From a virus (lineage: Duplodnaviria > Caudoviricetes): a stretch of 60,420 nt of DNA. This document shows positions 1 through 60,420 of the stretch, in pieces (position 1 is the first letter of the stretch; each line of letters starts with the position of its first letter). The notes under the pieces were generated by a model. It was not told the DNA's origin. It worked only from the letters and a program-made list of their open reading frames with translations, and searched no databases. Where the stretch lies: the IMG/VR virus record IMGVR_UViG_3300042549_004702, positions 1 through 60,420 of that record. The stretch is one strand, 5' to 3'. The position numbers were made by a program, and so were the translations under genes.

Positions 1-138
1 AGCGGCTGCTGTGTGGTGATCGTTTCCGGCCGATAGACGCACACCGGCCCTCCGGGTGCATCGAATGACTGGGCGTGGGCGGGAATAGCCAGTGCGACTA
101 TCCCAAGTATCGTTGCGAGTATTGCTTTCATAGTCCTC
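1..138. repeat. Terminal overlap, copy 1 (circular assembly)
   Basis: 1-138 matches 60283-60420 except at positions 9 and 12. Confidence 0.95.
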
Positions 139-151
139 CTGTTGTGGCCAT

Positions 152-235
152 CTACCAGATAGCCAGAAAATAGACGAGCAGCGCAAGTCCTGTGCAAAAA
201 AGGAAAATCGGGAATGGGTGTTCCTGTTTGGTCAC
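152..235 (-). CDS. 27-aa membrane micropeptide
   Basis: GTG overlaps the upstream stop; hydrophobic FPIFLFCTGLALLVYFLAIW. Confidence 0.4.
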   Translation of the reverse strand: MTKQEHPFPIFLFCTGLALLVYFLAIW

Positions 236-390
236 GCGCCACCTCCGAATCTGACCCAGCCCAGCCAACCGATGAGGGCCATCGTGACGAGCGCAAACAG
301 CTTCCAGCCTGTGGTTTCGCTTTTCCGTGTTAGGATGAATATCCCCATCGGAAACGTCGTTGCCAGTAGGTATATGATCACGTAATCCAT
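232..390 (-). CDS. Small two-TM membrane protein
   Basis: ATG in TAATG overlap with the upstream stop; two hydrophobic segments (MDYVIIYLL..., LFALVTMALIGWLGWV). Confidence 0.55.
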   Translation of the reverse strand: MDYVIIYLLATTFPMGIFILTRKSETTGWKLFALVTMALIGWLGWVRFGGGA

Positions 391-533
391 TAGCGCACAC
401 CTCCAAGCGTGGCAAGAATCGTCTGACCTGCGATGATGCCAATGATTACCGCAATCCAAATCAGCGTGCGCATCTGTATTCGGATCACGCGCTCTGGTTT
501 CTGGTTGTTGTTGTCTTGGTCGTTGTTCTGCAT
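390..533 (-). CDS. 47-aa single-TM protein (not in ORF track)
   Basis: AAGGAG RBS; translated by hand MQNNDQDNNQKPERVIRIQMRTLIWIAVIIGIIAGQTILATLGGVR. Confidence 0.55.
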   Translation of the reverse strand: MQNNDQDNNNQKPERVIRIQMRTLIWIAVIIGIIAGQTILATLGGVR

Positions 534-548
534 AATACTCCTTTGTTG

Positions 549-863
549 TTATGGCTTTCGAGCCTTGTTGATCTTGTCCGCCTCGACCTTAGCGTCGATA
601 TGCGTTGGCTTGACGCCACGCTGCTTCAGATCGGCGGCGCGCTCTCGTGAGTATCCCATCAGCATCTCACGGACGCTGCACGATGACTCCGGTTTCGATG
701 CGTCAAATGGCTTGCGCTCGCTGGCCATCTTGCGACGGCACCAATTTACCGCGCCGTCGCGGACTGTCGGTGTCACGTCGTCAAGCGAACTGGGCACGTA
801 ATCCTGAGCGGTCACGATTGTTGACGCGACCAGTACCAGTGCGGGTAGTATTGTGGCTTTCAT
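549..863 (-). CDS. Secreted hypothetical protein
   Basis: GGAGGA RBS; signal peptide MKATILPALVLVASTIVTA-Q. Confidence 0.65.
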   Translation of the reverse strand: MKATILPALVLVASTIVTAQDYVPSSLDDVTPTVRDGAVNWCRRKMASERKPFDASKPESSCSVREMLMGYSRERAADLKQRGVKPTHIDAKVEADKINKARKP

Positions 864-910
864 CGTTCCTCCTGATTTTGTGGAGCCTGAAAAGCGTTTC
901 AAACTCCGTT

Positions 911-966
911 AATTAAACACGAAATGAAACACGGAATTAGACACGAAATTGCGAGCGTGTTTAATT
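911..966. promoter_or_regulatory. Operator-like array: three 12-bp direct repeats plus an inverted copy
   Basis: TAAACACGAAAT/GAAACACGGAAT/TAGACACGAAAT at 914, 926, 938; CGTGTTTAATT at 956 is the reverse complement of 911-921. Confidence 0.55.
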
Positions 967-975
967 GCGCGCGAA

Positions 976-1251
976 TCACTCCCCCTCCGCCGCTGCGATC
1001 GCGGCAACTATGCGTTCCGTCACATCAGCCTCTGGCACGATACAGAATTGCCGTGATACCTCGATAATATAGTCATACGCCTTACGTAAGGCGCTATTAA
1101 GCAATGGCACAGCAGCCATTTGTCGGGCGTCCTCTTCCCAGAAATGCACAGATACCGTTTCATAGGATTCATCGTATACCGCATATCGCAACTGAGTTTC
1201 TGGAAACTCGTTTGACGCCAGCTCTCGTATTTCCCACTTCTCACCCATCAC
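976..1251 (-). CDS. Hypothetical phage protein, paralog of 1248-1523
   Basis: Coupled ORF; shares the KWE N-terminus and IAAAEGE C-terminus. Confidence 0.7.
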   Translation of the reverse strand: MMGEKWEIRELASNEFPETQLRYAVYDESYETVSVHFWEEDARQMAAVPLLNSALRKAYDYIIEVSRQFCIVPEADVTERIVAAIAAAEGE

Positions 1252-1523
1252 TCCCCCTCCGCCGCTGCGATTGCGTTACGTGCTTGGTCAAATGCCTCTT
1301 GCACCGCGGCTTTATTGGCGACGATTGGCGTCAGTCCAATCACAGCCGTCAGCGTCTCCAACGCTTCCAGCATCAGCGGCGCAGCTGCGATTAACTTTGC
1401 ATCTTTACGGCTGGTGACGTTGGCTACCAGCTCTTTGCCATTTTTCGCAAAGACGCCATATTCAACGGTGCGCACTATTTCGCGCTCAAACGGTTGTTTC
1501 ACCACTTCCCACTTTTTAGCCAT
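1248..1523 (-). CDS. Hypothetical phage protein (A-x-LIAAAP family)
   Basis: DAKLIAAAPLMLEAL motif typical of small phage early proteins. Confidence 0.7.
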   Translation of the reverse strand: MAKKWEVVKQPFEREIVRTVEYGVFAKNGKELVANVTSRKDAKLIAAAPLMLEALETLTAVIGLTPIVANKAAVQEAFDQARNAIAAAEGE

Positions 1524-1531
1524 CGCTCCCC

Positions 1532-2131
1532 CTATAATCTCGCGGTGACAATGCCTTGCTGATCTTGGTATTTGCCCTGACGGTCACCGTAAGTGACAGC
1601 AGGACGCTCGTCGAGTGCGAGCATAAGCAGCTGGCCGATGCCTTCGTGCGCGTAAACACGCATCGGTAGAGGCGTGGCGTTGGAAAGCTCAAGCACAAGC
1701 TGGCCCGTCCACCCCGGCTCAAGTGGTGTCGTGTTGAGGATGAGTCCACACCGCGCGTAGGTCGATTTGCCAATCACGAGCCCGATGTGATTATCCGGCA
1801 TCGTGATCCGCTCGTGGGTCACGCCCAGCGCGTACGAGTGCGGCGGCAGTGTGTAGTAGGTATCAGGGCTGTTACGATAGTCATACTCGGCATCGAGCGT
1901 GATCAGGCATCGCTCATCGAAACGCTTCGGATCAATGACTGCATCGTTGACCCGTCCATGGACAGCCGTAAACAGCTGCATCCCAGACGCACTCAGCGAC
2001 AGGTCATACCCTGCCGACGACGTGCCAAAGCTGATAACGCGATCGCCGTGGTACTGGCGCACCTGCCCAGCGTGAAAGACATCGAGTATCTCCGGCCCGT
2101 ACTTCTGCCACCATTTGTCACTGCGGATCAT
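1532..2131 (-). CDS. dcd: dCTP deaminase
   Basis: ISFGTSSAGYDL, GKSTYARCG, TPLEPGWTGQLVLE, GKYQDQQG motifs. Confidence 0.95.
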   Translation of the reverse strand: MIRSDKWWQKYGPEILDVFHAGQVRQYHGDRVISFGTSSAGYDLSLSASGMQLFTAVHGRVNDAVIDPKRFDERCLITLDAEYDYRNSPDTYYTLPPHSYALGVTHERITMPDNHIGLVIGKSTYARCGLILNTTPLEPGWTGQLVLELSNATPLPMRVYAHEGIGQLLMLALDERPAVTYGDRQGKYQDQQGIVTARL

Positions 2132-2472
2132 CGCGCCTCCTTCGTGATGGCGACCAACTCGGTCACGATGTCAGGAGCCAACGCTATATATGCGTGACTG
2201 TACATGCTGATGGCATCCAGCGTGTCCACTACGACGTAACCAGGATTCTCACTGGCCAAGATCGCGCGCGCAATCACCAGCAGTGCGCGATCACACTCCA
2301 GCTGCGCCTGATTTACCGCTCCAAGGAGCTCGTAGTATTTGGCAAGCTCAGCGTCTTGGTCGGTGACGAGGGCGTCCTGTACAGTCTGCGATTGCCGGTT
2401 GCCTGCGCGAGTCAATGCCTCAAGGATAAGGCGACACTGCGCGTACTGAGTGAAAGCTGTTACGTCAATCAT
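2128..2472 (-). CDS. Hypothetical protein
   Basis: AAAGGA RBS; stop overlaps the dcd start. Confidence 0.65.
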   Translation of the reverse strand: MIDVTAFTQYAQCRLILEALTRAGNRQSQTVQDALVTDQDAELAKYYELLGAVNQAQLECDRALLVIARAILASENPGYVVVDTLDAISMYSHAYIALAPDIVTELVAITKEAR

Positions 2473-2517
2473 TTTTGTCCTTTCGGGGAGGGCGCCCTCC
2501 CCTGATAGCGTGGTTAG

Positions 2518-2778
2518 TTAATCGGTCACGTCTTCTGCGCGAACGCGAACCGCGCGTCCATCGTGAGCCACGAGCCATGTCAGGTAATATGGCCCCATGT
2601 TGCCGGTTTTTGTGATGATCGAATCGCACTCCATCAGTCCATTGTGATCAGCTACGATATAGAGTCGTTCATCTTCGATGACATCCTGTATCGACCTGCC
2701 AGCGGTCAATGGCAGCTGGATTGCGCGTCCATTGGCAATGTGCCGGGCAAAGATGACATGAGCTTGTTTGTCAGTCAT
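2518..2778 (-). CDS. Hypothetical protein
   Basis: ORF overlapping the bet stop in the same operon. Confidence 0.6.
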   Translation of the reverse strand: MTDKQAHVIFARHIANGRAIQLPLTAGRSIQDVIEDERLYIVADHNGLMECDSIITKTGNMGPYYLTWLVAHDGRAVRVRAEDVTD

Positions 2779-3817
2779 ACATCATGTCATCCACATCATT
2801 AGAATTTGCAGATGCGTAGTGCGGCTGTATTTTCGCACGAGCTGGAGTCGGACTAATATCTGATTCAGAGAATGCCTGACGGTCAGGCTGACCATCGCGC
2901 TCTGCATCGAGCTGATTGAGGCGCGTGCCGTAGCGCGTTATCAGCTTCTCCAGCTCCTCCGGCGACAGCAGCGCAAGTGAATGGTCGAAGAGGTCGGGCA
3001 ATTGCTGGCCGGTCATATTCGCGATGCCTTGCAGGATCAGCGCGTCGGCGACTCCGAATCCTGACAGCCCGTCGAGGATCTGCGAAAGCTGCTCGACCAG
3101 TCCGGTATCAGCTGCGGTCACAATAGGCGCAGGAGCCTCAGAAATGGCGCGTGGTGCTTTTTTGGGTGCGGGTGCTGGTGTTGCAGGAACTGCGACGGCT
3201 GAGGGCGTTACGTCGATGACGTTCGACGCCTGACCCATTTCCTCGCTGGTATAAATGCCGCTCATCTCAGCCGGAAACGCTTTGCGAAGCGAGAGAGCCT
3301 CGGCGCATTTTGCCAGCTGCGCGGCAGGCATACGCGCCCACATCGGATTCGGCCTGACCTGACCAGACGACTTATCCTTGTACGTCTGGCAGTACTCGCT
3401 AAAAAGCGCGACGCCCCAAAATGGCTCACGGCATCCAGCGCGCCATACTCCTACTTTGGCTGCGCGTGGCGGCTCGGTCGCCAGCCACACATCGACCCAC
3501 TGGCCATCTGCGCCACACCAGAACGGGCCAGACTGGCCCTCATAACGTCCGGTCCGATCGGCGATGAGGCGATAGCCATCGATGCCGGTCTGGATCTCGC
3601 ATACCTCACGCTGGGCTTTTGCGTCCCAGCGTTTCACCAAGTGGATCTGGCGGGACAGGATGTCGAGACCCTTTTTCTGCGCTACGGCAAGAAACAATTG
3701 AAACTCGCTCTCGCTGGCCCCTTTGGCGAATGTGTCCCGGATTAATTTTACCTGATCCTGAGAGTACGACTCGGCCATCTGGCCGGGTGTCGTGATCGTA
3801 ATTGCTGTGCTGCTCAT
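2771..3817 (-). CDS. bet: Single-strand annealing protein (Redbeta/RecT family)
   Basis: QTGIDGYRLIADRTG, W-x-x-MP-x-x-QLAKCAEALSLRKAFP, GIYTSEEM. Confidence 0.9.
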   Translation of the reverse strand: MSSTAITITTPGQMAESYSQDQVKLIRDTFAKGASESEFQLFLAVAQKKGLDILSRQIHLVKRWDAKAQREVCEIQTGIDGYRLIADRTGRYEGQSGPFWCGADGQWVDVWLATEPPRAAKVGVWRAGCREPFWGVALFSEYCQTYKDKSSGQVRPNPMWARMPAAQLAKCAEALSLRKAFPAEMSGIYTSEEMGQASNVIDVTPSAVAVPATPAPAPKKAPRAISEAPAPIVTAADTGLVEQLSQILDGLSGFGVADALILQGIANMTGQQLPDLFDHSLALLSPEELEKLITRYGTRLNQLDAERDGQPDRQAFSESDISPTPARAKIQPHYASANSNDVDDMMYD

Positions 3818-3825
3818 ATGTCCTC

Positions 3826-3978
3826 CTACCAGGTGCTGCGGCTGCGTCGCAGCCAGTCGTTGATTGAATCGGCATTGTCGCGCCGAAGCGTATCGTCCGG
3901 TGCGCGTTCGTCGTGCTCGTCGTCGCAGTCGTCACGATCAAGGTCGTAGTCGTCGTCTCGTCGATTGTCGTCGATCAT
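3826..3978 (-). CDS. 50-aa very acidic protein (not in ORF track)
   Basis: GGAGG RBS; MIDDNRRDDDYDLDRDDCDDEHDERAPDDTLRRDNADSINDWLRRSRSTW. Confidence 0.6.
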   Translation of the reverse strand: MIDDNRRDDDYDLDRDDCDDEHDERAPDDTLRRDNADSINDWLRRSRSTW

Positions 3979-3994
3979 TGCTAATCCTCCACGC

Positions 3995-4028
3995 AAGAAA
4001 AGCCACTCCGATGTAGATCAGAGTGGCT
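3995..4028 (-). terminator. Intrinsic terminator
   Basis: Minus strand AGCCACTCTGAT-CTAC-ATCGGAGTGGCT followed by TTTCTT. Confidence 0.65.
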
Positions 4029-4034
4029 CGAAAT

Positions 4035-4763
4035 TTAGAAACGGTACACGATGCCGTTCAGCAAAACGGCAGAGATCTCGGCAGTCTTGCCGATGCTGAG
4101 GTATCCCTCAGCAGACCAACTGCCTACCAGCCCATCCGCCGACAGCTCAAGATTATAAGCGTCGTCGGACGCCGCCATCTTATCGAAAAGCGCGGTGACG
4201 CTCTCCGCCGTGGTTTTGTGCATTGATCGCCACTCGTCGGTGGCGAAAGCAACGGTCTCGATCAGCTGGGCAGCGCGGCCCACTGGCAACTCCTCGATCG
4301 TCTCAGGTTCGTCCTCCTCGCAGCCGACGAAACCAGCGTGCCGGAACACGGCAACCTTGCGGACGCTGCCGTCCGGCTGCGTCTGATCAACGCTCTCCCG
4401 GACGCTGAAAGCGTACATAGGCGTGATCCCGTGCGCACGAAGGGCGGACTCGAGTGGGGCCATCAGGTACGGCGCGCCGCCGATCATGGCGTATTCGAAG
4501 CAGTTAGCCTCAGTGTGGAGCGGCTCTCCGGCCCACTCCTGGGCGTACGGCAACGCCGATTTTTCGCGCCAAATCGCGCAGCTCGCTATCTTGGCGATCT
4601 GCTGTGCCCTTTGCGCAACCTCGCTTGAGCTGGGCAGAGTCTCAAATGTCAGTAGTGAGCGAATTTCCATGATCTGCTCTGGGGATAGCTCCCCTGAGGT
4701 CACTCCGGCGGCGATCTGCTCAGTAGTGGCGGTGTGCTGGGTAAGGTTGAGTATTCGGTTCAT
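4035..4763 (-). CDS. Csx20/Csx15-like Rossmann-fold protein (putative cOA ring nuclease) with C-terminal extension
   Basis: ILNLTQH...EQI, AMIGG, GITPMYAFSVRES...DGSVRKVAVFRHAGF resembles my recollection of the Csx20 consensus. Confidence 0.55.
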   Translation of the reverse strand: MNRILNLTQHTATTEQIAAGVTSGELSPEQIMEIRSLLTFETLPSSSEVAQRAQQIAKIASCAIWREKSALPYAQEWAGEPLHTEANCFEYAMIGGAPYLMAPLESALRAHGITPMYAFSVRESVDQTQPDGSVRKVAVFRHAGFVGCEEDEPETIEELPVGRAAQLIETVAFATDEWRSMHKTTAESVTALFDKMAASDDAYNLELSADGLVGSWSAEGYLSIGKTAEISAVLLNGIVYRF

Positions 4764-4802
4764 TGTTTCTCCTGTTGTGGGGCCGTGCCCCTGATAGCTG
4801 CG

Positions 4803-4964
4803 TTAGAAAGGGATAGTCTCGTCACCCTCAGCATCGGCGTCAGTGACGATTGGTATCATGCAGAGTCCGCACGGGACACCGTGCCACTCAGGAGAGCCAT
4901 CGCTGGCCATATACGGCCCAGTGACGATGACTCCGTTTTCGCATCGTGGGTCAATGCAGGTCAT
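4803..4964 (-). CDS. 53-aa Cys-rich protein ending DETIPF (not in ORF track)
   Basis: ATGA overlap with the upstream stop; CIDPRC...CGLC; acidic IPF tail. Confidence 0.6.
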   Translation of the reverse strand: MTCIDPRCENGVIVTGPYMASDGSPEWHGVPCGLCMIPIVTDADAEGDETIPF

Positions 4965-5191
4965 CGGCTCACGCGCCAGTTCTTGGCCGTCCGCGCACTG
5001 ATGACGAACTCAACGACGCGAGGCATACCAAATGCCGAAGTACCAGCTGACTCGTCCCACGTCAGCTCGAGAATGCGGCCATCGGCCAATCGATACTCCT
5101 CGCGGCAGCGAGGACCAGCGACGCGCCCCGACTCTGAGTTGACGATGGTTGCGGTGCGCACTAAGGACGCAATTTCGGTCTGGTTGATCAT
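4961..5191 (-). CDS. Hypothetical early protein
   Basis: AGGAG RBS inside the repeated leader; starts MINQTEIA. Confidence 0.65.
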   Translation of the reverse strand: MINQTEIASLVRTATIVNSESGRVAGPRCREEYRLADGRILELTWDESAGTSAFGMPRVVEFVISARTAKNWRVSR

Positions 5192-5255
5192 TGTCGTTTC
5201 TCCTGTTAGCTGCGTTTGCGTCTCCGAGAGCCTCACTGCCCCCGTCGACGATGCG

Positions 5256-5284
5256 AATATATCGCGAGTAATAGTTATTGTCAA
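5256..5284 (-). promoter_or_regulatory. Sigma70-type early promoter
   Basis: TTGACA-17 bp-TATATT on the minus strand. Confidence 0.8.
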
Positions 5285-5847
5285 CAGTTATTTTGCAAGT
5301 CGTTTACTTTTTTCTCGTCCACGACTGGATCATCCCAAACGCGCACTCCGTGAGACTCCGACCTGACGTGAAGCCCGATCTCTACCGCCAGCTCGTGCGC
5401 AGTCCGTGAGCACACGTCGATCGAGCCGCGCGTTGTCGCCGAGAAGCGAATGTACACGCGCTGAGTAGCTGGCACGTCCGTCAAACCGCGCACCAGGCAC
5501 AGCGTACACGTCCCGACGGATCGCACGTCGTAATTGACGTCGTCGATGCGCGGCCACACCTCGACGATAGCGATAGGCTCGAAGGAATACCCAGCGGTGA
5601 TAGCAGCGACCGCCTCTGTGCGTGTCTCCCAGCACTCCGGAGAGCGTCGGGGGAACTGCCCCCCCTGCTCTATGCGCCATCCATCAGCGGCGCGCACGAC
5701 GCGCTGAGCCGTGCTGGCTGCTGCTTCTCTCGCCGCTAGACGCGCATCTAGCGCGCGGTCATTGCGCTTCTTCAGCTGTGTCGGAGTCGCCGACACGCTC
5801 GACGACAGCGACATTGGCCGCAGTCTATTTTCGATTTTGGGCTTCAC
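5281..5847 (-). CDS. Hypothetical protein
   Basis: GTG after AGGAG; long ORF in the early operon. Confidence 0.5.
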   Translation of the reverse strand: MKPKIENRLRPMSLSSSVSATPTQLKKRNDRALDARLAAREAAASTAQRVVRAADGWRIEQGGQFPRRSPECWETRTEAVAAITAGYSFEPIAIVEVWPRIDDVNYDVRSVGTCTLCLVRGLTDVPATQRVYIRFSATTRGSIDVCSRTAHELAVEIGLHVRSESHGVRVWDDPVVDEKKVNDLQNNC

Positions 5848-5854
5848 ATTGCTC

Positions 5855-6064
5855 CTAAATGTCAATCGCCCCTGATCGGGGCGTATCGGTGGGTTGCGGC
5901 TTGCGAAGCTGACTAGTCTCCCGCTCTCGCAATAGGTCGCAATGAATGCACCGGCGACCGAGTGATTGCCGGTGCGTAAAATGCGTTACCGGGGCGCATA
6001 TCGCGCATACCGGATAGTCGCCGAGGTGATCGTCACCGCACCTCTGGCAGATGGCGTCGTTCAC
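5855..6064 (-). CDS. Small Zn-finger-like protein
   Basis: Three CxxC pairs; GTGA overlap with a 35-aa upstream ORF. Confidence 0.45.
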   Translation of the reverse strand: MNDAICQRCGDDHLGDYPVCAICAPVTHFTHRQSLGRRCIHCDLLRERETSQLRKPQPTDTPRSGAIDI

Positions 6065-6167
6065 AATGGCATCTCCCATCCGCGCCACGGGCGAACAACA
6101 GAGTCCGGCGTAAAGCCGGACTCGTAGTGCAGATGGCATAGTGCCGCGACGAGTGTGTCTCTTTTCA

Positions 6168-6815
6168 TTATGCCACCTCCAGCTTAGTCCGCCGAAACGG
6201 CGTGACCATTGATGCGCCGGTTGTCCGACCGCAAGATGCCTCGTAGATGAGGCCAAATGACGTCCATGGGCCGATAGGCTCATCATTCGTAATCTCCATC
6301 GGCAGGTGTGGCTCACCCGCCCACTGACCGGAGGGATAACGCTTAATCGGCCACGAGAAATTTAGCCACCGCCAAATAAACGGATCAGCTGTTTGTAGCT
6401 GAGACTCGACCCGCAAAGCGGAAGTCCCCGCCATATCAAGCACTCGCGGCAAAGCCATCGCCGCCGCTAACTCTGACCAGACGGTGCCCTCAAATAGCCC
6501 GTCGTCACCCTGATGGGTGGCTGCGTAGAGCGCGCGCCAGTGGCTGCGCTCCGAGTAGGATCGGGGCTCAAATGTCTCCGTAAACGTCAGCGTGTCGCCC
6601 TCAAGCGCAAGCGTCGCGCGTCGGTAAAGCTGGGGACGCTCATGAGAGCTCCACTCGAAAGTGCAAGTATGCTCGATGCGACGAATTCTCATTGACGTTT
6701 CGTTGTTGGTCAGAGTCTGGAATAAATCCATACTCTCCGGGACATTGGCGGCAAATCCGCCGTATCCGAGGTGCTTCAAAATTGCGATGATGTGCTTGCT
6801 GTCGATCTGGTTCAT
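6168..6815 (-). CDS. Hypothetical protein
   Basis: AGGAG RBS in the repeat; 215 aa ORF. Confidence 0.7.
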   Translation of the reverse strand: MNQIDSKHIIAILKHLGYGGFAANVPESMDLFQTLTNNETSMRIRRIEHTCTFEWSSHERPQLYRRATLALEGDTLTFTETFEPRSYSERSHWRALYAATHQGDDGLFEGTVWSELAAAMALPRVLDMAGTSALRVESQLQTADPFIWRWLNFSWPIKRYPSGQWAGEPHLPMEITNDEPIGPWTSFGLIYEASCGRTTGASMVTPFRRTKLEVA

Positions 6816-6866
6816 GTCGTCTCCTGTGGTTGCGCGGCCCGATCACGAGCCGCTGATAGTTGATAG

Positions 6867-7085
6867 TTATTTTGTAAAAATCCACGCGCGCTTATCGGTA
6901 AGGTCTGCGTCCGACATATCCCCACCGCCGAAGCAATCCTCGCTATTGGCGCAGCCCGTGTGATATGCGACGTACTGACCGTCGGCAGGGATCGGCTCAG
7001 ACTGGGGGTGAATATCGTTGAGGTTGACTGCGTACCCGCAAACTGCGCACCGTTGCGGGGCGTTGATCTGGTTCATTTTACTCAT
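6867..7085 (-). CDS. Small Zn-binding hypothetical protein
   Basis: CAVC...HTGC; lies between two repeat copies. Confidence 0.65.
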   Translation of the reverse strand: MSKMNQINAPQRCAVCGYAVNLNDIHPQSEPIPADGQYVAYHTGCANSEDCFGGGDMSDADLTDKRAWIFTK

Positions 7086-7139
7086 TGTTTCTCCTGTGGT
7101 TGCGCGGCCCGATCACGAGCCGCTGGTTGTGGTGAATGG

Positions 7140-7337
7140 TTAGGCTGCGTCTTCGAGATCCTCGATAGTGAGACTTTCGAGTGCCGGCGACCAGTCGTCG
7201 CCATACTCAAGGCCCATATCGTGAGCCGTGTCCACGACGAGAGCGACAGCGGCTTCGAAGGTCGCCGGTGTGACTTCATTTTGAAAGCAGCCGTCAACCC
7301 AGTTTTGGACATCTCGTCTACTATTCATCTTACGCAT
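7140..7337 (-). CDS. Small acidic hypothetical protein
   Basis: Starts MRKMNSRR after the repeat RBS; acidic C-terminus. Confidence 0.65.
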   Translation of the reverse strand: MRKMNSRRDVQNWVDGCFQNEVTPATFEAAVALVVDTAHDMGLEYGDDWSPALESLTIEDLEDAA

Positions 7338-7395
7338 TGTTTCTCCTGTGGTTGTGCGGCTCGTCGCAGGACAAGCCGCTGATTGTGGTGGGTGA

Positions 7396-7632
7396 TTAGC
7401 GAGAGACTCGCACGGCCCAGGCGTTGCGGCGGCTGCCGTCACCGCCGACGAGTACGACGCGACCCTGAGCGTCACGGCACTCAATCAGGCCGTCGCCGTG
7501 ATCGGCCACCACGGTCAGCCCTGCTTCCGCGATCTCGTCAGTGACGAGCGCGTTCTCGCTGCCCGTGAGCGCGAATCCGCGCCCGTCGTTGTTCAAAGCT
7601 GAGTAAAGGTTGCGTGCTTCTGTGCTGGTCAT
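7396..7632 (-). CDS. First gene of the leftward early operon, hypothetical
   Basis: AGGAG RBS; starts MTSTEARN. Confidence 0.65.
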   Translation of the reverse strand: MTSTEARNLYSALNNDGRGFALTGSENALVTDEIAEAGLTVVADHGDGLIECRDAQGRVVLVGGDGSRRNAWAVRVSR

Positions 7633-7695
7633 TGCGTTTCTCCTGTTAGCTGCGTTTGCGTCTTCGGAAGCCTCATTGCCCCCGTCGATAAATGC

Positions 7696-7725
7696 ACTAT
7701 ACCGGAGACCGTGAATTATTGTCAA
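7696..7725 (-). promoter_or_regulatory. Sigma70-type leftward early promoter
   Basis: TTGACA-18 bp-TATAGT; flanks duplicated at 5189-5299. Confidence 0.8.
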
Positions 7726-7770
7726 CAGTTATTTTGCAAATAAATTATTAAAATTCGTTTACTTTTATTC

Positions 7771-7799
7771 TTGACAAGTCGGCGCGTTCGTTCGAATGT
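7771..7799 (+). promoter_or_regulatory. Divergent rightward promoter
   Basis: Perfect TTGACA at 7771 after an AT-rich tract; the -10 element is weak. Confidence 0.45.
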
Positions 7800-7806
7800 C
7801 CTCTTC

Positions 7807-8052
7807 GTGAACGAAATTGATCTTTTGACAATCCGACAGGCCGCCGAGCTCAAGCGCGTCGCAATCAGCACTATCTATCACTGGTTGCGCTCTGGCCGTC
7901 TCACTCCCTACTCTCTGTCTACTGTGACTGGTAGCTATCGTGCCGTCAGTCGGGCAGAGGTCGAGCAGACGCAGATACTCAAGCGCGGCCGGCCTGCAAG
8001 AATATCGTCGATACCAGATCTGACACCAGATCTGACTATCGACCAGGTGTAG
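7807..8052 (+). CDS. Xis/MerR-like HTH DNA-binding protein
   Basis: LLTIRQAAELKRVAISTIYHWLRSGRL. Confidence 0.8.
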   Translation: MNEIDLLTIRQAAELKRVAISTIYHWLRSGRLTPYSLSTVTGSYRAVSRAEVEQTQILKRGRPARISSIPDLTPDLTIDQV

Positions 8053-8413
8053 GTGGACTGATCACCCGCAGGCGCGATCTAACGATCGCTTACCACCGAT
8101 TACCCGGTATGGCTCCGGGTCAGGTGGAGAGATACTTCCCACGCTCTCCACCTCCTACCAAGTTATTACGGGTTTCCGCTGCCTCTCCTGTCGGCGGAAT
8201 GTGGGGATGGGTCGCTATCGCATTGACGGCCCTTCCCCGCTGCGTTTTTTGAAGTTTTGCTCGTTGTTCTTTGTGCAAGGAAGGTCTTGATAGATTCGAA
8301 GCTGGGGCATCGAACGCAACTACTACCAAGGCCCGATCTGGAAATCAGCACCAAATCGTAGCGATCCTACGTCGAGCAAATAGCCGGTCAGTGGCAGAGA
8401 TTGACCGGCATCT

Positions 8414-8481
8414 GGGATGGATAGGTAGCGCAAAGGTCTGGCCCGATCTGACGCGCACGGGTTCGATTCCCGGCCATCCCC
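8414..8481 (+). ncRNA. tRNA-like RNA 1 (acceptor and T arm, no normal D or anticodon arm)
   Basis: GGGATGG/CCATCCC 7-bp stem; CGGG-TTCGATT-CCCG T arm. Confidence 0.55.
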
Positions 8482-8571
8482 TTACTGGCAGTCGTAGCCA
8501 GAGATCACGCGATCTGAAGCCACGGGGCATCGACACCGGTTCATGTTATTTTCTCCAATAGCTGGTTATTC

Positions 8572-8598
8572 GGGAGTGCCCGCGACTCCCACTTTTTT
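8572..8598 (+). terminator. Intrinsic terminator-like hairpin
   Basis: GGGAGT-GCCCGCG-ACTCCC followed by ACTTTTTT. Confidence 0.55.
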
Positions 8599-8683
8599 GT
8601 GGGCGTGGTCTAACTGGTCACGACGGTCAGAGGAAGCGCGCAAGTATCTCTGACAAACGCTGGTTCGAAGCCAGCCGCCTGCA
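8599..8683 (+). ncRNA. tRNA-like RNA 2 (cloverleaf with enlarged anticodon arm)
   Basis: GTGGGCG/CGCCTGC acceptor, GTC/GAC D arm with GG, GTCAGAG/CTCTGAC stem with 15-nt loop, GCTGG-TTCGAAG-CCAGC T arm. Confidence 0.65.
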
Positions 8684-8692
8684 TTGCTAGTG

Positions 8693-8864
8693 TGGTATAA
8701 TGTATCTGGCCGCTGGGGTGACGCTCAGTAGTAGCAGGCCGAAATGGGAAACTGGGATAACTACAACATCAATGAGCCTTTTGAGAAGGCGGGTCAGGCA
8801 ACCGATAGGCCGTCAACCTATCACCAGTTTCCCACCTGCCCGTTTTCTCAAAGGGCTTTTTGTT
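8693..8864 (+). promoter_or_regulatory. Extended -10 promoter and attenuator-like leader
   Basis: TGgTATAAT at 8693; long stem 8774-8793/8839-8858 followed by a T tract. Confidence 0.55.
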
Positions 8865-8923
8865 CGTCAATTCAGCTATAACAACAGAACGTAAATCACG
8901 AATCACAGAGGAGCACATTAACG

Positions 8924-10318
8924 ATGAACCAATTTGAGACAAGCGACTACACTGAGTTTCTATGGAAAAAAACTCAGCTTAACGACGGTGACGGATTTGA
9001 TCCGTTATGGATGCCTGAGTTTTTGTTCGACTTTCAATCTCACCTTGTAGACTGGGCTATCCGTCGCGGTCGTGCTGCGATCTTTGCCGATTGCGGTATG
9101 GGCAAGACACCGATGCAGTTAGTGTGGGCAGAGAATGTCCACAGGCACACAAACAAACCAGTGTTGATACTCACACCATTGGCCGTCTCGACTCAGACGG
9201 TGGAAGAGGCTCAGAAGTTCGGGATCGAAGCGAAGGTCAGCAGGGATGGATCAATCGACTCACCTATCATCGTCACCAATTACGAGCGGCTGCACCATTT
9301 CAATTCGTCAGACTTCGGCGGGGTTGTGTGCGACGAATCGAGCGCGATCAAGTCGTTTAATGGTAGTACCCGGATAGCTGTTACCGAATTTATGCGCAAG
9401 CATCGTTACCGACTTCTGTGCACGGCCACGGCTGCCCCTAATGACTATATCGAACTGGGCACCTCAAGCGAAGCTCTCGGCGAAATGGGAGCGCGGGATA
9501 TGCTGTCACAATTTTTCAAGAACGATCAGAATACGGGCGCGGCTGATGCTGGTCGAAGAGCCTGGTCAGGTCATGGAGCTACGATAAAATGGAGATTCAA
9601 AGGTCACGCTGAGGTTCCATTCTGGCGGTGGGTGTCATCCTGGGCGAGGGCAATCCGCAAGCCATCGGACTTCGGATTCAATGATGATCGATTCAAGTTG
9701 CCAAAACTGACAGAGTCTGAGCATTTGGTAAAAGCCGCCACACTTCCCGATGGATGTTTGTTCGAGATGACCGCTCAAGGGTTGACAATGATCAGAGAAG
9801 AGCAGCGACGTACGATTAACGAGCGTTGTGAAAAACTAGCAGAGCTTTGCCAGACTGATCAGCCTGTTGTCGTCTGGTGCAATCTCAACGATGAGGGCTC
9901 GTTGCTGTCAAAGCTATTGCCTGACTTTGTTGAGGTGTCTGGCAGTAGCTCTCCGGAGTTTAAGGAAGAAGCGTTTAACGGATTCCGTCACGGGCAACTT
10001 CGCGGACTGATCACGAAGAGCAAGATTGGCGCGTGGGGTATGAACTGGCAACACTGCGCGCATACAGTTCTTTTTCCGTCTTACTCATATGAGCAGTATT
10101 ACCAGCTGGTTAGACGTTTCTGGCGATTTGGTCAGGAGCGTAACGTTCAGGTCGATATAGTAACGACAGAAAGTGGTCACGACATTATGGAAGCCTTGAA
10201 ACGCAAGGCTGATCAAACTGACCGAATGTTTTCCTCACTGGTTGAGCATATGAACCAGTCACGGAAGATGACAATAACAACGAAATCAACAAATATGGAG
10301 TTACCAACATGGCTGTAA
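8924..10318 (+). CDS. SNF2-like SF2 helicase
   Basis: ADCGMGKT, CDES, TATAAPN, QLVRRFWRFGQ. Confidence 0.9.
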   Translation: MNQFETSDYTEFLWKKTQLNDGDGFDPLWMPEFLFDFQSHLVDWAIRRGRAAIFADCGMGKTPMQLVWAENVHRHTNKPVLILTPLAVSTQTVEEAQKFGIEAKVSRDGSIDSPIIVTNYERLHHFNSSDFGGVVCDESSAIKSFNGSTRIAVTEFMRKHRYRLLCTATAAPNDYIELGTSSEALGEMGARDMLSQFFKNDQNTGAADAGRRAWSGHGATIKWRFKGHAEVPFWRWVSSWARAIRKPSDFGFNDDRFKLPKLTESEHLVKAATLPDGCLFEMTAQGLTMIREEQRRTINERCEKLAELCQTDQPVVVWCNLNDEGSLLSKLLPDFVEVSGSSSPEFKEEAFNGFRHGQLRGLITKSKIGAWGMNWQHCAHTVLFPSYSYEQYYQLVRRFWRFGQERNVQVDIVTTESGHDIMEALKRKADQTDRMFSSLVEHMNQSRKMTITTKSTNMELPTWL

Positions 10319-11344: not shown

Positions 11345-11662
11345 ATGATGAAATTGACAGAAATTGATCCTCTGATGATAGCGCGTCCGACTGTTGCGGT
11401 AGTAGATGGCAATTTGAATCAAGCATATCTTCTTAGTCAATTAATTTGGACGGTAAACGATCGTTCAGAAGATGCTGAATGGCATAATTTTGACGCTGAA
11501 GACTTTGCCAATCAAATCGGGATGTCTTATGAGTGGCTTCGTTCTCAGGCACAAGATTTAGCCAGGTATGTGTTTTTTGGTTGGCGTACTTGGAATAGGC
11601 CACGACCGATAATTCAGTTTAATTTGCACTTATTCTATCAGTCCCTTGAGGAGAGCAAATGA
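11345..11662 (+). CDS. Initiator-like N-terminal wHTH protein
   Basis: Similar to the N-terminus of the next gene (MKLT..., LLSQLIW versus MLSQAVYW). Confidence 0.55.
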   Translation: MMKLTEIDPLMIARPTVAVVDGNLNQAYLLSQLIWTVNDRSEDAEWHNFDAEDFANQIGMSYEWLRSQAQDLARYVFFGWRTWNRPRPIIQFNLHLFYQSLEESK

Positions 11663-12534
11663 AGCTAACCAAGATCCTTAGCAGTCCGATTGCTTTTCAT
11701 CGATGCCTTGCAGAGTTGGCCGGGTCGGTGACATCTGGCTTGATGCTCAGTCAGGCCGTGTATTGGATGGGAAAGACCAAAGATCCGGATGGATGGTTCT
11801 GGAAGACTCAGGACGACTGGTTGGAAGAGACGATGCTCAGTCGAAAAGAGCAGGAATCTGCTCGTCGTCGGCTGAGAGAGATCACTTTTGAGGGGGAATC
11901 TTTGTGGTGTGAGCAGCTGCGTGGCGTACCGGCAAAGCTTTATTATCGAGTCGATATGGACATACTAGAACGCCTCTTAACGGCAGACCAGTATGCCCAA
12001 AAGGAGCAATCCAGTATGCCCAAAAGGGGCATACTAGAAAGCCCAAAAGGGGCATACAAGAACGCCCAAAAGGGGCATACATTCTTATTAGCAGAGACTA
12101 CTACAGAGACTACATCAGAGAGTACGGCAGAGAGTACGACAGAAACCACGGAACCGGCGCGCGCGCCGAGACCTCTTCACGTAGTCGAGAGTGCAGACAT
12201 TGACAGCTTAGGCGACGCATTCGACGAAGCCTACCCTGGCATGTTCAATCAGTGGGGAAAGCTGAAAGACATGCGTGAGCTTGTCAAACGCCTGAATGCG
12301 AATGCATCGCACGTACGAGAGTTTCCATCATGGCTCAAAAGAGCCTACCCCCTAAAAGCGAACAATCACTTTGCGTTCATGGATCTCTTCCCCGAGTTCG
12401 TGAAGCAGTCACCAAAGAAAGCGACTAAGCCTGTCTCCACTTGCGGCAAGTGTGATGCCGGGTACGTCGTCAACGATCAGGGGCTTGCGGCTAAATGCCC
12501 TTGCCAGTCACCACGTCAGGCCAAAGCAGTCTGA
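11659..12534 (+). CDS. Phage replication initiator (lambda O-like)
   Basis: LSQAVYW...WFWKTQDDWLEET wHTH; internal iterons; directly upstream of dnaB. Confidence 0.85.
   Translation: MKLTKILSSPIAFHRCLAELAGSVTSGLMLSQAVYWMGKTKDPDGWFWKTQDDWLEETMLSRKEQESARRRLREITFEGESLWCEQLRGVPAKLYYRVDMDILERLLTADQYAQKEQSSMPKRGILESPKGAYKNAQKGHTFLLAETTTETTSESTAESTTETTEPARAPRPLHVVESADIDSLGDAFDEAYPGMFNQWGKLKDMRELVKRLNANASHVREFPSWLKRAYPLKANNHFAFMDLFPEFVKQSPKKATKPVSTCGKCDAGYVVNDQGLAAKCPCQSPRQAKAV
11991..12080. repeat. Four 23-bp-period iterons, probable replication origin
   Basis: GCCCAAAAGG(G/A)GCA at 11995, 12018, 12041, 12064 inside the initiator gene. Confidence 0.85.
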
Positions 12535-14782: not shown

Positions 14783-15613
14783 ATGGGACTTTTTGACCTA
14801 AACAAACTTCTCGACAAGGACGACAAGACCAGAGGCGAATCGTTGATGGAAGAGGCGCGATCCTTCGATCTTGCCGGCACTGGCGGCTTCCTGGCAATCG
14901 TCAAGTATTTGATCTTCGCGATTCTGGCCAGTCTCAACTTTCATCTGTTCTACTCGCACGTGCCTGGCATCTGGGGAGTAGCACTCGGGTCTGTCGCGCT
15001 TCTCTTTGAGGCGTGCTGCGTCTACTTCTGGAACAAACAGAACAAGAGCGCAGGTGCGCACAAGATTGCGCTGCAGTCATTCGCGGTGCTGTTCACGACG
15101 ATCAGCTTCGTTCACGGATGCGCGGCACTCTACCAGATCAGCGGCGTCGGGCCGACGCTCGAGAACACGATCTACAACTATTCCAAGTACGTTGCCTTCC
15201 CGCTTCTCTTTGGCCTGATGGTTCTTGCCGTTTGCGTTCTCCACGCTTTCCACTGGTCAACGGCGATCAGCGAATCACGCGCGGATTCTCTTCTCGCGGC
15301 TGAACGTGGACGTGCCCAACTTGTGACTCAGGCTTTGGAGCTTGAGCACCAGTCGGAAATCGAGAATTCGCGGTTGGCCTACTTTGAGCACAAGTCCGTG
15401 CTCGAGGAAAAACTCGTGGGCGCAATGGAGAATTACATCCAGATCAAAGAGCGGTCACGACGTGCAATGGACTCTGTGAGCGATCCAGAGCTTCGTCAGT
15501 CGCTCCTGAATGCGATGGGCAGGACTAGCACGTCCGCACCTACCCAGCGACGAATCAACCCGCTTCCGGCGGCGGCACAGGCGTCAGACCCAAAAGACAA
15601 TCCCCCGAGTTAG
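14783..15613 (+). CDS. Four-TM membrane protein with C-terminal coiled coil
   Basis: Hydrophobic segments in aa 30-160, then a charged helical tail. Confidence 0.75.
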   Translation: MGLFDLNKLLDKDDKTRGESLMEEARSFDLAGTGGFLAIVKYLIFAILASLNFHLFYSHVPGIWGVALGSVALLFEACCVYFWNKQNKSAGAHKIALQSFAVLFTTISFVHGCAALYQISGVGPTLENTIYNYSKYVAFPLLFGLMVLAVCVLHAFHWSTAISESRADSLLAAERGRAQLVTQALELEHQSEIENSRLAYFEHKSVLEEKLVGAMENYIQIKERSRRAMDSVSDPELRQSLLNAMGRTSTSAPTQRRINPLPAAAQASDPKDNPPS

Positions 15614-15630
15614 ATCGGGGGGATGCCGAG

Positions 15631-16218
15631 ATGGTGCGCGTGATTCGCGATCAGGATATCGACGATCCGACCATCGAAGAATACGTGCACTTCCCAACGC
15701 CCGGACGCCTCGCGCCGTCTGTGCCAGTAGTGGCACAAGATCAGTCACAACCAGTGGCACAGTCAGTGGCACAAGCTCAGAATATCGAGTCTGTGCCCGT
15801 GACTGACTCGGTGGCACAAGGCCAAAATTCCGACCGTGTGACCAGCCCGTCACCGGTGGCACAATCGCCAATAATGCCGCCTGTGCCCGTGACACAACCA
15901 GTGGCACAGATACGTGTGTCACTAGTGGCACAACGGCCAAATCGGAGGTCATGTGCCACTAGTGGCACATTGGCGTTAAGGTCTGCTAAAATCAACAACT
16001 TACCGAAAGGCAAGTCTCACACTGTGCCACCACCAAAAATAGCGGGGCACGAGTGGCGACAAGCCGGTGCGGGATGGTCACTCTGGCGACGTGTGCCCAC
16101 AATTTCGGCGACAGGCAAGCGCACTTCTGAGCGCAAATATGTGCGATACATTACTCAGTCTGCAATCGAAAGGATCTACAATCGGAATGGAAAATCGAAA
16201 CCACAAACCAAGTCTTGA
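15631..16218 (+). CDS. Hypothetical protein with VAQ repeats and a basic C-terminal domain
   Basis: RBS present; the repeats coincide with a DNA 8-mer cluster. Confidence 0.6.
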   Translation: MVRVIRDQDIDDPTIEEYVHFPTPGRLAPSVPVVAQDQSQPVAQSVAQAQNIESVPVTDSVAQGQNSDRVTSPSPVAQSPIMPPVPVTQPVAQIRVSLVAQRPNRRSCATSGTLALRSAKINNLPKGKSHTVPPPKIAGHEWRQAGAGWSLWRRVPTISATGKRTSERKYVRYITQSAIERIYNRNGKSKPQTKS

Positions 16219-16412
16219 GGAGGTGCAAAGTTGGCCTGTGCCACTTCAGCAGCTCGAACTTGCAATGCTCTGTGACTCGCCCGTGCCACTAGTGGCACAG
16301 CAGGCACAAGATCACCTATTCGTGGAAATCTCCATCGACACACCACAGCTCATATGCCAATTATGGGAGGAACAAGAGAGAGCTCAGGCCGTCATTTGAC
16401 GGCCCGTGCCAC
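15720..16412. repeat. GTGGCACA/TGTGCCAC cluster with 18-bp palindromes
   Basis: 9 forward and 3 reverse exact copies; perfect TGTGCCACTAGTGGCACA at 15952-15969. Confidence 0.85.
16187..16399 (+). CDS. Hypothetical protein
   Basis: ATG in the 16067 frame; fills the gap in the operon. Confidence 0.4.
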   Translation: MENRNHKPSLEEVQSWPVPLQQLELAMLCDSPVPLVAQQAQDHLFVEISIDTPQLICQLWEEQERAQAVI

Positions 16413-30527: not shown

Positions 30528-30605
30528 CTTGTGGATTTTTATCAACGATGTCCTTGTGATGTAGTAATATCACAGAGCCTCATATGTTGAGGCGGAAAGG
30601 ACAAA

Positions 30606-31286
30606 ATGGAACTGACCACGTCACGACTGATATACCCAGACGCGCCTTCGGGATTGCTGTCTGGGTATTGTTCTATTTGCGGCCAGTACGACATCACGCA
30701 CTTCCACCGCAACGACCTACTGACTCCCACCTCGGCCAACCTCACGGCCATCTTCGACTTTCACCACGAGCACGTTTGCCGCTTCTGTTCCGCTATATGG
30801 CGAGAACCGAAGAAGTATCACCGTGCAATTTACGCCGATCACGAATCGGTGCTATTCCCCGTGATATCTGCGGAGACCGCATCATCGGAGCGTCCGTTAT
30901 GGGCCGACGTTATCCGGCAAATGCCGACAGACCGAGAGCGCGTTATCGTGCTCACCACAGATCCTAAGAAGCGAGTGTGGCCATTTGCGCGCATCAGCTC
31001 CGGTAATGTGGCGTGCATATACCTTCACGATCCATCGCGTGGAGTGTCGGGCAATACCTGGGTAGAGATAGCACGGCTGAGAGAATGCCTTGTGATCATC
31101 GAAGAGGCTTACGAGCTTGGATTTTCGAAGCCAGCGATCGAGGAGTCGCTATTCACGTCCTACAATCAACTACAGGCCGTAGGATTGGCCACAACAACAC
31201 GAATGGAGAAAGCCATATCATCGTATAGGGCCACTCCTGAATTCCTGCCTGCGCTCATTGTGGCGCAAAGAAAGGTAACACTATGA
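30606..31286 (+). CDS. csf1: Type IV Cas8-like large subunit
   Basis: Zn finger CSIC...CRFC, KKRVWP motif; first gene of the csf operon. Confidence 0.72.
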   Translation: MELTTSRLIYPDAPSGLLSGYCSICGQYDITHFHRNDLLTPTSANLTAIFDFHHEHVCRFCSAIWREPKKYHRAIYADHESVLFPVISAETASSERPLWADVIRQMPTDRERVIVLTTDPKKRVWPFARISSGNVACIYLHDPSRGVSGNTWVEIARLRECLVIIEEAYELGFSKPAIEESLFTSYNQLQAVGLATTTRMEKAISSYRATPEFLPALIVAQRKVTL

Positions 31287-57291: not shown

Positions 57292-57355
57292 TGTGGTGAT
57301 CCTTTCTGTGTGAGAGGCTGGAAGTCCTGATTTTACTGCATTATTGTCATTTCCC

Positions 57356-57434
57356 TATTTACTAAATAGTGGTTTAGTAATACTAGGTTGTTTTGGTTTA
57401 GATATGGCTTAGTAAAGTCATTTAGTAAAGTCAT
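57356..57434. promoter_or_regulatory. 11-6-11 inverted repeat plus a 13-bp tandem repeat (recombination site or operator)
   Basis: TATTTACTAAA-TAGTGG-TTTAGTAATAC; TTAGTAAAGTCAT twice at 57409 and 57422. Confidence 0.55.
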
Positions 57435-60413: not shown

Positions 60414-60420
60414 AGTCCTC
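60283..60420. repeat. Terminal overlap, copy 2
   Basis: Matches 1-138. Confidence 0.95.

Follow-up and report, generated by a model that had tools for sequence, protein, structure and literature searches.

The 60,420-nucleotide viral record IMGVR_UViG_3300042549_004702 (Duplodnaviria, Caudoviricetes), analyzed over its whole length and referred to here as the window, carries five short gene junctions on its minus strand between positions 2478 and 7381, at each of which a GC-rich hairpin is followed closely by a ribosome-binding site (RBS) and an ATG. We named these junctions joints A to E and propose, at a probability of about one half, that they are promoter-less intercistronic expression joints of an early polycistronic mRNA, which double as landmarks of recombination. 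Their anatomy, their strand bias, their enrichment in one operon and their coincidence with mosaic boundaries are direct observations.

Anatomy of the joints

An earlier note on this DNA had reported five minus-strand copies of a hairpin-RBS unit, and re-inspection of the sequence confirmed each of them in its place. The order of parts is the same in all five: the TAA of the upstream gene, a spacer of 11-16 nt ending in CA, a GC hairpin starting with G, a linker and an ATG. The linkers measure 12-18 nt from the end of the hairpin to the ATG, are rich in A and C and contain AGGA in every case, while the G-rich arm of the stem is its 5' side. The joints and their parts are as follows (aa, amino acids).

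Joint A, 7335-7398, minus strand: TAA of a 78-aa gene, 16-nt CA-rich spacer, hairpin, linker and ATG 7337 of a 65-aa gene
Joint A hairpin, 7379-7356, minus strand: GCGGCTTGTC-CTGC-GACGAGCCGC, 10 bp including one G-U pair
Joint A linker, minus strand: 18 nt, ACAACCACAGGAGAAACA
Joint B, 7083-7142, minus strand: TAA, 16-nt spacer, hairpin, 18-nt linker and ATG 7085 of a 72-aa gene
Joint B hairpin, 7123-7104, minus strand: GCGGCTCG-TGAT-CGGGCCGC, 8 bp including one G-U pair
Joint C, 6813-6869, minus strand: TAA, 13-nt spacer, hairpin, linker and ATG 6815 of a 215-aa gene
Joint C hairpin, 6853-6834, minus strand: 8 bp, same sequence as the joint B hairpin
Joint D, 4761-4805, minus strand: TAA, 11-nt spacer, hairpin, 15-nt linker and ATG 4763 of a 242-aa gene
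Joint D hairpin, 4791-4779, minus strand: GGGGC-ACG-GCCCC, 5 bp
Joint E, 2470-2520, minus strand: TAA, 15-nt spacer, hairpin, linker and ATG 2472 of a 114-aa gene
Joint E hairpin, 2502-2485, minus strand: GGGGAGG-GCGC-CCTCCCC, 7 bp
Joint E linker, minus strand: 12 nt, GAAAGGACAAAA

The joints are spaced 256, 270, 2058 and 2290 nt apart and use at least four different stems. As the earlier note had it, two copies (joints B and C) share 36 identical bp, which run from CAGCGG through GGAGA, and the stems differ in sequence while their pairing is kept. It had also pointed to related protein starts behind the joints, and to its examples (which extend to MNQIDS, MSKMNQIN and MRKMNS) we could add MINQTE and MNRILN.

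Promoter modules and looser junctions

A scan of positions 1-9000 for promoters and terminators found only two strong minus-strand promoter sites, at 7725-7696 and 5284-5256, each with 11 of 12 matches, and no sigma-70-like promoter at any of joints A-E. The modules built around these two sites, P1 and P2, are duplicates of each other, sharing 24 identical nt around the -35 box and 93% identity over 54 nt of leader, and in both leaders a predicted 7-bp hairpin lies within a few bases of the predicted start of transcription, with an A/C-rich RBS after it. The sequences on either side of joint D (ACGCAGCTA ... ACAGGAGAAAC) agree with the 3' portion of the P1 and P2 leaders, which makes joints and leaders variants of one design, a hairpin and then an open RBS. 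The spacer of joint C likewise resembles the region upstream of the -35 box in P1 and P2 (75% over 24 nt).

Relatives of the window were collected as 20 viral loci gathered through its RecT gene, and only one of them, L018 (a 20-kb record rated 54% complete), has the joints themselves. The A/B/C type is present in it twice, and it also has orthologues of D and E, the junctions before RecT and before a 154-aa gene, the same terminator and two promoters of the P1/P2 type. Across the aligned copies, the CAG at the 5' edge of the hairpin is invariant (9/9). The elements that accompany the joints in the window are these.

Promoter module P1, 7632-7739, minus strand: TTGACA-18-TATAGT (7725-7696), leader hairpin 7684-7665, CA-rich RBS, ATG 7632
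Promoter module P2, 5191-5298, minus strand: TTGACA-17-TATATT (5284-5256), leader hairpin 5244-5225, RBS, ATG 5191
Looser junction F, 5845-5883, minus strand: CGCCCC-GATCA-GGGGCG (hairpin 5883-5867) inside the 3' end of a 69-aa gene, then AGGAG and the GTG of a 188-aa gene
Looser junction G, 129-165, minus strand: 9-bp hairpin 165-145 followed by CAACAGGAGGACT and ATG of the 154-aa gene; kept in L018
Looser junction H, 3815-3855, minus strand: hairpin 3855-3839 ahead of RecT; kept in L018
Terminator-like hairpin, 4002-4029, minus strand: 12 bp and then TTTCTT, behind the 242-aa gene, read from the sequence; also in L018
RecT-family single-strand annealing protein, 2771-3817, minus strand: in the same operon as the joints

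A joint-like gene start was also seen in the late operon at 30577-30608 on the plus strand, where GCCTCA-TATGT-TGAGGC is followed by GGAAAGGACAAAATG, a linker nearly the same as that of joint E.

Enrichment in the leftward operon

The joints belong to a leftward operon that runs along the minus strand from the strong promoter near 7725 to base 1 and on through 60282 to ~55263, ending at a long T-tailed hairpin (55236-55205). Bases 1-138 recur at 60283-60420 of the record, and the phage genome is therefore ~60.3 kb long with a terminal overlap.

A motif composed after the copies had been seen (CA, a stem of at least 5 bp starting with G[CG]GG, a loop of 3-8 nt, AGGA or GGAG at most 14 nt away, then a start codon) matched five times in the whole window, always on the minus strand and always inside 2478-7381; in 200 dinucleotide shuffles it matched 0.145 times on average and twice at most, with at least one match in 26 of the 200, figures that do not give a clean p-value because the motif was fitted to the copies. 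An untuned rule accepted any GC hairpin ending within 16 nt of a Shine-Dalgarno (SD) sequence and a start codon that opens an open reading frame (ORF) of at least 40 codons. In the 12.8-kb leftward operon this rule matched 11 times on the coding strand and not once on the opposite one; it matched four times on the coding strand of the remaining 47.5 kb, and 35 times in 203 kb of unrelated viral loci read on both strands. The joints are thus part of a roughly ten-fold enrichment of hairpin-before-RBS junctions in the leftward operon.

Folding was predicted to form the hairpin in every joint, and the energies of stretches of 75-81 nt, compared with shuffles, gave z values of -2.43, -1.09, -1.85, +0.33 and -2.14 for A to E. 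Taken one by one these energies are unimpressive, so that the case stands on the repeated architecture and not on thermodynamics.

Joints and mosaic boundaries in related phages

The DNA pattern of joints A/B/C was found among viral contigs in the L018 record only, as was each of the 242-aa and 114-aa proteins, and in metagenome contigs it occurred in five stretches, none of which had blastn similarity to the window. A distant blastn search with 2300-7600 gave no match in the phage database, and a looser pattern for D and E matched at least 119 stretches of viral contigs, which we took as noise and used as background DNA only.

In comparisons with L018 and with three more distant phages, the joints stand out as islands of homology set among unrelated genes. 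Two of the nine window proteins encoded between P1 and joint D had a tblastn match in L018, and from joint D to the 154-aa gene ten of the 12 tested did; the block of 94% identity opens ~35 nt ahead of hairpin D and is preceded by a stretch that barely aligns. Joints A and C both align to the second L018 joint, with the similarity stopping just past the ATG and, in the case of joint A, beginning where an unrelated upstream gene has its stop codon. The counterpart of the 72-aa gene that follows joint B is the C-terminal half of an L018 gene of 147 aa, indicating that a joint was fused to the middle of a gene. Overall, six of the 22 ends of blastn blocks lay no more than 40 nt from a joint or a leader hairpin, zones which by our estimate make up ~5% of the 15.3-kb query and would be expected to hold about one block end.

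L002, L003 and L004, the three more distant phages, carry a 47-48-nt island, made of a GCGGC-AATGGA-GCCGC hairpin and an RBS, ahead of three different genes, and this island is the sole similarity amid otherwise different DNA. Compared with L002, L003 has an extra 1.0-kb unit of hairpin, RBS and gene, which stops 12 nt short of the hairpin that follows. The window, L018 and L002-L004 all have the GCGGC/GCCGC stem base, and the order of the genes that in the window encode proteins of 53, 65, 69, 78, 91, 154 and 188 aa differs in the relatives.

Judged by these alignments, the joints mark mosaic boundaries. The earlier note had suggested cassette shuffling by Bet and had asked for gene gain or loss at the repeats in relatives; the variation does lie largely at the joints in the few pairs compared (L018 and L002-L004), which supports the cassette variation that it proposed; the recombinase encoded is of the RecT family and not Bet.

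The RecT genes are themselves mosaic, in that the N-terminal two thirds are ~39% and a portion of the C-terminal region ~79% identical between L018 (9998-11425) and the window (2771-3817), and the window RecT agrees at 94% over its last 35 residues with the end of another L018 ORF, of 160 aa; exchange has thus occurred inside genes as well. Separately, the promoter before the RecT module of L002 (~9660-9725), L003 (9921-9949) and L004 (~9740-9796) overlaps an 11-bp palindrome (TGATCTGATAG ... CTATCAGATCA) that looks operator-like, and joints C, D and E also carry its CTATCAG half, possibly by chance, at their 5' edge.

Pairing on the coding strand

The stems contain a small number of internal non-Watson-Crick pairs, one in A, one in B/C, one in G and two in each of the P1 and P2 leader hairpins. 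All of these wobbles are G-U on the coding strand, where the opposite strand would have A-C mismatches, and between the two leader hairpins G-U and G-C are exchanged between adjacent pairs. Above their constant GCGGC/GCCGC base, joints A and B/C and the first L018 copy have upper stems that vary in sequence and length and still pair. These three observations favor a structure that is read on the mRNA. For joints D and E, the L018 orthologues have unchanged stem bases (10/10 and 14/14, respectively) and changed loops.

A model of the joints and what weighs against it

In the model that we favor, each joint would mark the start of one gene or of a small group of overlapping genes. The hairpin would lock up the GC-rich sequence, so that the A/C-rich, U-poor linker and its strong SD, held at a fixed spacing before the ATG, could stay open whatever gene lies upstream. 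It may also act as a barrier to exonucleases and end-dependent decay for the mRNA segments on both its sides, and the leader hairpins of P1 and P2 would give the same shielding near the predicted 5' end of the primary transcripts. At the DNA level, a joint of 45-65 nt that is repeated in the genome and in relatives would offer short homologies where early genes are swapped, added or truncated; it is this recurrence within the genome and among relatives that leads us to propose the joints as sites of early-gene exchange, and RecT may catalyze homologous or short-homology exchange at them. Every step at the RNA level, like the role given to RecT, is what we infer from the observations above.

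Several points weigh against this model. The hairpin of joint D has just 5 bp, and the z value of its stretch (+0.33) is at the level of shuffles; the minimum-energy folds of A and B pair part of the SD, weakly, with the upstream spacer. The strand argument is biased, as the hairpin finder accepted G-U and not A-C pairs, though every wobble lies inside a stem that otherwise pairs perfectly. Stem pairs altered on both sides are few, the support coming mostly from one-sided exchanges (G-U/G-C and U-A/U-G), and the second L018 copy has lost two stem pairs and retains 4 bp, so the structure is not strictly maintained. As to recombination, 16 of the 22 blastn block ends lie away from the joints, some of them inside RecT and the 242-aa gene; islands of similarity create block ends by themselves and gene swaps must end between genes, and the coincidence is therefore no proof of recombination at the joints. 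Finally, the collections searched held a single close relative, L018.

Other functions of the hairpins

It is unlikely that the hairpins are signals at which a host nuclease, RNase III or RNase E, divides the early polycistronic RNA into single messages. RNase III sites that separate messages are present in the early region of phage T7, and bacterial mRNAs carry intercistronic or 5'-terminal stabilizer hairpins, structured signals that set message ends and lifetime; the joint hairpins resemble both in being structured signals between the cistrons of an early RNA, and they recur along the operon and fold on the sense strand. RNase III, however, needs about two helical turns and RNase E prefers A/U-rich single strands, whereas the joint stems have 5-10 bp, much shorter than RNase III substrates, and their flanks are A/C-rich and U-poor. 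We set the RNase III reading aside because the stems are too short.

Somewhat less credit goes to a role of the hairpin, with its conserved CA-G 5' edge, as the place where an RNA-binding protein of phage or host attaches to repress or time the translation of the gene downstream. The adjacent RBS, the CAG edge found in all nine copies and the stem base shared by the window, L018 and L002-L004 would suit such a site; the four or more different stems would not, and Pfam and PHROGs gave no candidate protein among the early genes.

Equally doubtful is the proposal that the copies are functionless scars of duplication and recombination events that copied a junction together with its first codons. 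Similarity does extend into the first 4-8 codons (ATGAACCAGATC and related sequences), the stem of the second L018 copy has decayed, and B and C are near-identical, as from a recent duplication. Against scars stand the pairing kept across different stems, wobbles that fit the sense strand only, the same stop/start spacing in all five joints, and analogous hairpins before unrelated genes in several related phages.

Very unlikely, in our judgment, are weak terminators or pause sites that grade transcription of the operon and are perhaps overridden by a phage antiterminator. GC hairpins do stand in series downstream of two strong promoters, and the stem-loops of PeSLs (promoter-early stem-loops), the promoter and stem-loop cassettes of T4-type phages, are effective terminators (PMC2839356). 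No run of T follows any of the five stems, however, and the terminator scan lists none of them, while a U-tailed terminator-like hairpin exists separately at 4029-4002 (the only one inside the stretch of the joints, which the simple scan did not list); the place of the hairpins directly ahead of the SD, together with the conserved linker, argues for translation and against termination. As intrinsic (rho-independent) terminators the joints were rejected, their GC stems having no U run. Lambda-type nut sites were set aside on account of the five or more copies, each right at an RBS, and miniature inverted-repeat transposable elements (MITE) or repetitive extragenic palindromic (REP)-type insertions were set aside, with no copies elsewhere in the collections searched.

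The solo Cas6e

The earlier note had suggested that a Cas6e of the phage itself might process the joints. The enzyme is indeed there, as a full-length match to its family model, at the far end of the operon.

Solo Cas6e, 56617-57291, minus strand: far end of the leftward operon, TTG start, 223 residues

Its match to PF08798 (E = 1.6e-41) covers residues 1-221 of 223, and it scores 79.8 bits against TIGR01907, where the cut-off is 45.2. His26 aligns with His26 of the Thermus enzyme, which we take to be the catalytic residue, and is the same in all 18 aligned sequences. The gene lies between those of a Xer-like integrase and DnaN, and the AT-rich region upstream of the gene (57292-57420) contains direct and inverted TTACTAAA repeats. 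No relative of the protein was found in viral contigs; it is 38-41% identical to its nearest cellular relatives and is encoded in a genome where no other cas gene, no CRISPR array and no repeat resembling those of type I-E was found. There is also a Cas6e that is 96% identical to it, with which 28 sequences from metagenomes cluster.

As substrates of this enzyme, the joint hairpins would be cut at the 3' base of the stem, releasing single-gene mRNAs with a leader of 12-18 nt and an upstream fragment ending in a hairpin with Cas6e still bound. An intact-looking Cas6e in the same leftward operon speaks for this possibility, as do the size of the hairpins (5-10 bp with loops of 3-4 nt), which falls in the range seen for CRISPR repeat hairpins, and a cleavage geometry that would yield translatable products; furthermore, a genome with neither an array nor an I-E-like repeat leaves Cas6e with no obvious substrate of its own.

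The repeats that accompany related enzymes gave a different picture. Of 80 genomic loci around the nearest cellular Cas6e homologues (30-41% identity; Chloroflexota, Acidobacteriota, Burkholderiales and others), 52 proved in a k-mer scan to contain arrays, and a stricter repeat pattern yielded 44 distinct type I-E repeats with one consensus, GTnGTCCCCACGCnCGTGGGGGTGAACCG, at a mean column identity of 90%. This consensus has a stem of CCCCAC and GTGGGG around 4 nt and a GTGAACCG tail. A covariance model of the 44 repeats (R1), run over the whole window with filters off, had a best hit at E = 1.7 and three hits in all, every one of them in late genes on the plus strand; run on 2400-7450 only, it returned 13 noise hits with none of the five joints among them. 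Rfam at E values up to 5 gave six weak matches in the window, none at the joints and none to a CRISPR-DR family. For Cas6f, a related enzyme, one altered base pair at the stem's base abolishes binding (PMC10651486).

The joints therefore do not look like substrates of the phage Cas6e, contrary to the earlier note: none of them matches the repeat model, their stems are of at least four different kinds, and it is the 5' arm that is G-rich. The relatives point the same way, with the caution that their records are incomplete. L018 has joints of the A/B/C, D, E and G kinds and yet no Cas6e in its 54%-complete record, in which the leftward operon stops soon after the 154-aa gene and genes on the opposite strand lie beyond; in L008 the genes for integrase, dCTP deaminase and DnaN are present, and no Cas6e lies between them; and none of the records of five relatives (completeness 31-83%) contains the gene. 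We consider cleavage of the joints by Cas6e extremely improbable. The same slight weight attaches to the idea that a solo Cas6e with shifted specificity processes the early mRNA of the phage at non-CRISPR hairpins, which would make it a CRISPR enzyme reused as an operon-processing nuclease and a natural counterpart of the engineered Cas6-type operon insulators that exist. From its setting, Cas6e looks like a further cassette of the mosaic operon and not like a partner of the joints; our guess is that it may act on type I-E transcripts of the host. It is the more unusual item of the window, and a limited literature search turned up no paper on a solo phage Cas6e.

Two other observations concern CRISPR-like features. 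A lone 7-8-bp hairpin at 15601-15622 on the plus strand, TCCCCCGA-GTTAGA-TCGGGGGG, lies across the stop codon of the gene 14783-15613 and just before the next gene; with its C-rich 5' arm and G-rich 3' arm it is similar by eye to a type I-E repeat, and it was rejected as one after model R1 gave no match. The 242-aa protein behind joint D (4035-4763, minus strand) has a weak, near full-length match to the model of the CRISPR-associated Csx20, NF040559 (E = 1.7e-6; 28.4 bits against a cut-off of 70; residues 23-145), and L018 retains only the N-terminal part of this protein, the part that matches Csx20, at 94% identity. Together with Cas6e, this would place two CRISPR-associated families in a single phage operon.

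Comparison with known systems

The joints are not a new principle, and they are best read as cousins of the T4-type PeSLs in a promoter-less form. PeSLs are described as small cassettes of a promoter and a stem-loop that lie in hyperplastic regions and mediate modular shuffling (Arbiol et al. 2010, PMC2839356; Comeau et al. 2014, PMC4122927). Like them, the joints are short, repeated regulatory cassettes with a stem-loop, set between small and mostly unknown early genes of a hypervariable region: the five joints and two promoter modules lie among nine small genes, of which two are matched in L018. Insertions, deletions and replacements between related phages occur at the cassettes in both cases, with the reservation that few pairs were compared here and other breakpoints lie inside genes. 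Modules P1 and P2 come close to the PeSL design as so described, strong sigma-70-like promoter included. Joints A-E depart from that design, which has a strong sigma-70 promoter and an effective terminator stem-loop, in having neither a promoter-like site nor a T tail and in including the RBS and the first codons. The carrier differs as well, being a 60-kb phage with an integrase and a P22-type coat protein and not a T4-like myovirus.

With type I-E CRISPR repeats the joints share small GC hairpins with a short loop, recurrence along one transcript and a Cas6e gene in the genome, but they have no constant repeat, no regular spacing of ~60 nt, and neither the CCCCAC/GTGGGG stem nor the GTGAACCG tail. 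The viral solitary repeat units known as RNA anti-CRISPRs (Racrs) are also hairpin units carried singly in phage genomes; they are tied to Cas6 enzymes, closely mimic the CRISPR repeat of the host and usually stand behind a promoter of their own (PMC10651486), whereas the joints match no Rfam CRISPR-DR family and not the I-E repeat model.

The array-like arrangement recalls integrons, in which promoter-less genes are separated by imperfect palindromes, the attC sites, and a tyrosine recombinase is encoded in the genome here too. The joint hairpins, unlike attC, measure 13-24 nt in all, and no attC-type core sites were seen by eye flanking the joint stems. The integron reading was rejected, the recombinase scoring 71.3 bits against the integron-integrase model over its C-terminal 60 residues, where the cut-off is 265; the same protein (57947-58834) reaches 141.9 bits with XerD-type models.

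If our model of the joints is right, the variable early region would be built from plug-in units, in which a promoter-less gene placed behind a hairpin-RBS joint gets translated, and the joints would hand recombinases short homologies for the exchange of early genes. The PeSL idea would then extend beyond T4-type phages to a temperate 60-kb phage lineage, in a form that has no promoters, and the joints could serve as compact natural insulator parts for synthetic operons.

Other features of the phage genome

The leftward operon carries many small proteins that have no family match (Pfam and PHROGs gave none for most early genes), and besides RecT and Cas6e it encodes a dCTP deaminase-like protein, a thymidylate kinase, the Xer-like tyrosine recombinase and a DnaN clamp. 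Its sigma-70-type promoters and its gene content suggest that it is probably expressed early. Genes for a helicase, a methylase, DnaB, terminase, portal and the P22-type coat protein lie on the plus strand, where a PAPS-reductase-like gene (33354-34247) was found among the late genes. The plus strand also contains four iteron-like 23-bp tandem repeats at 11958-12077, within the ORF 11659-12534, as well as 45-bp repeats with GTGGCAC/GTGCCAC palindromes at 15720-16304, in and beyond the ORF 15631-16218, and both repeat fields are candidate replication-origin or protein-binding arrays.

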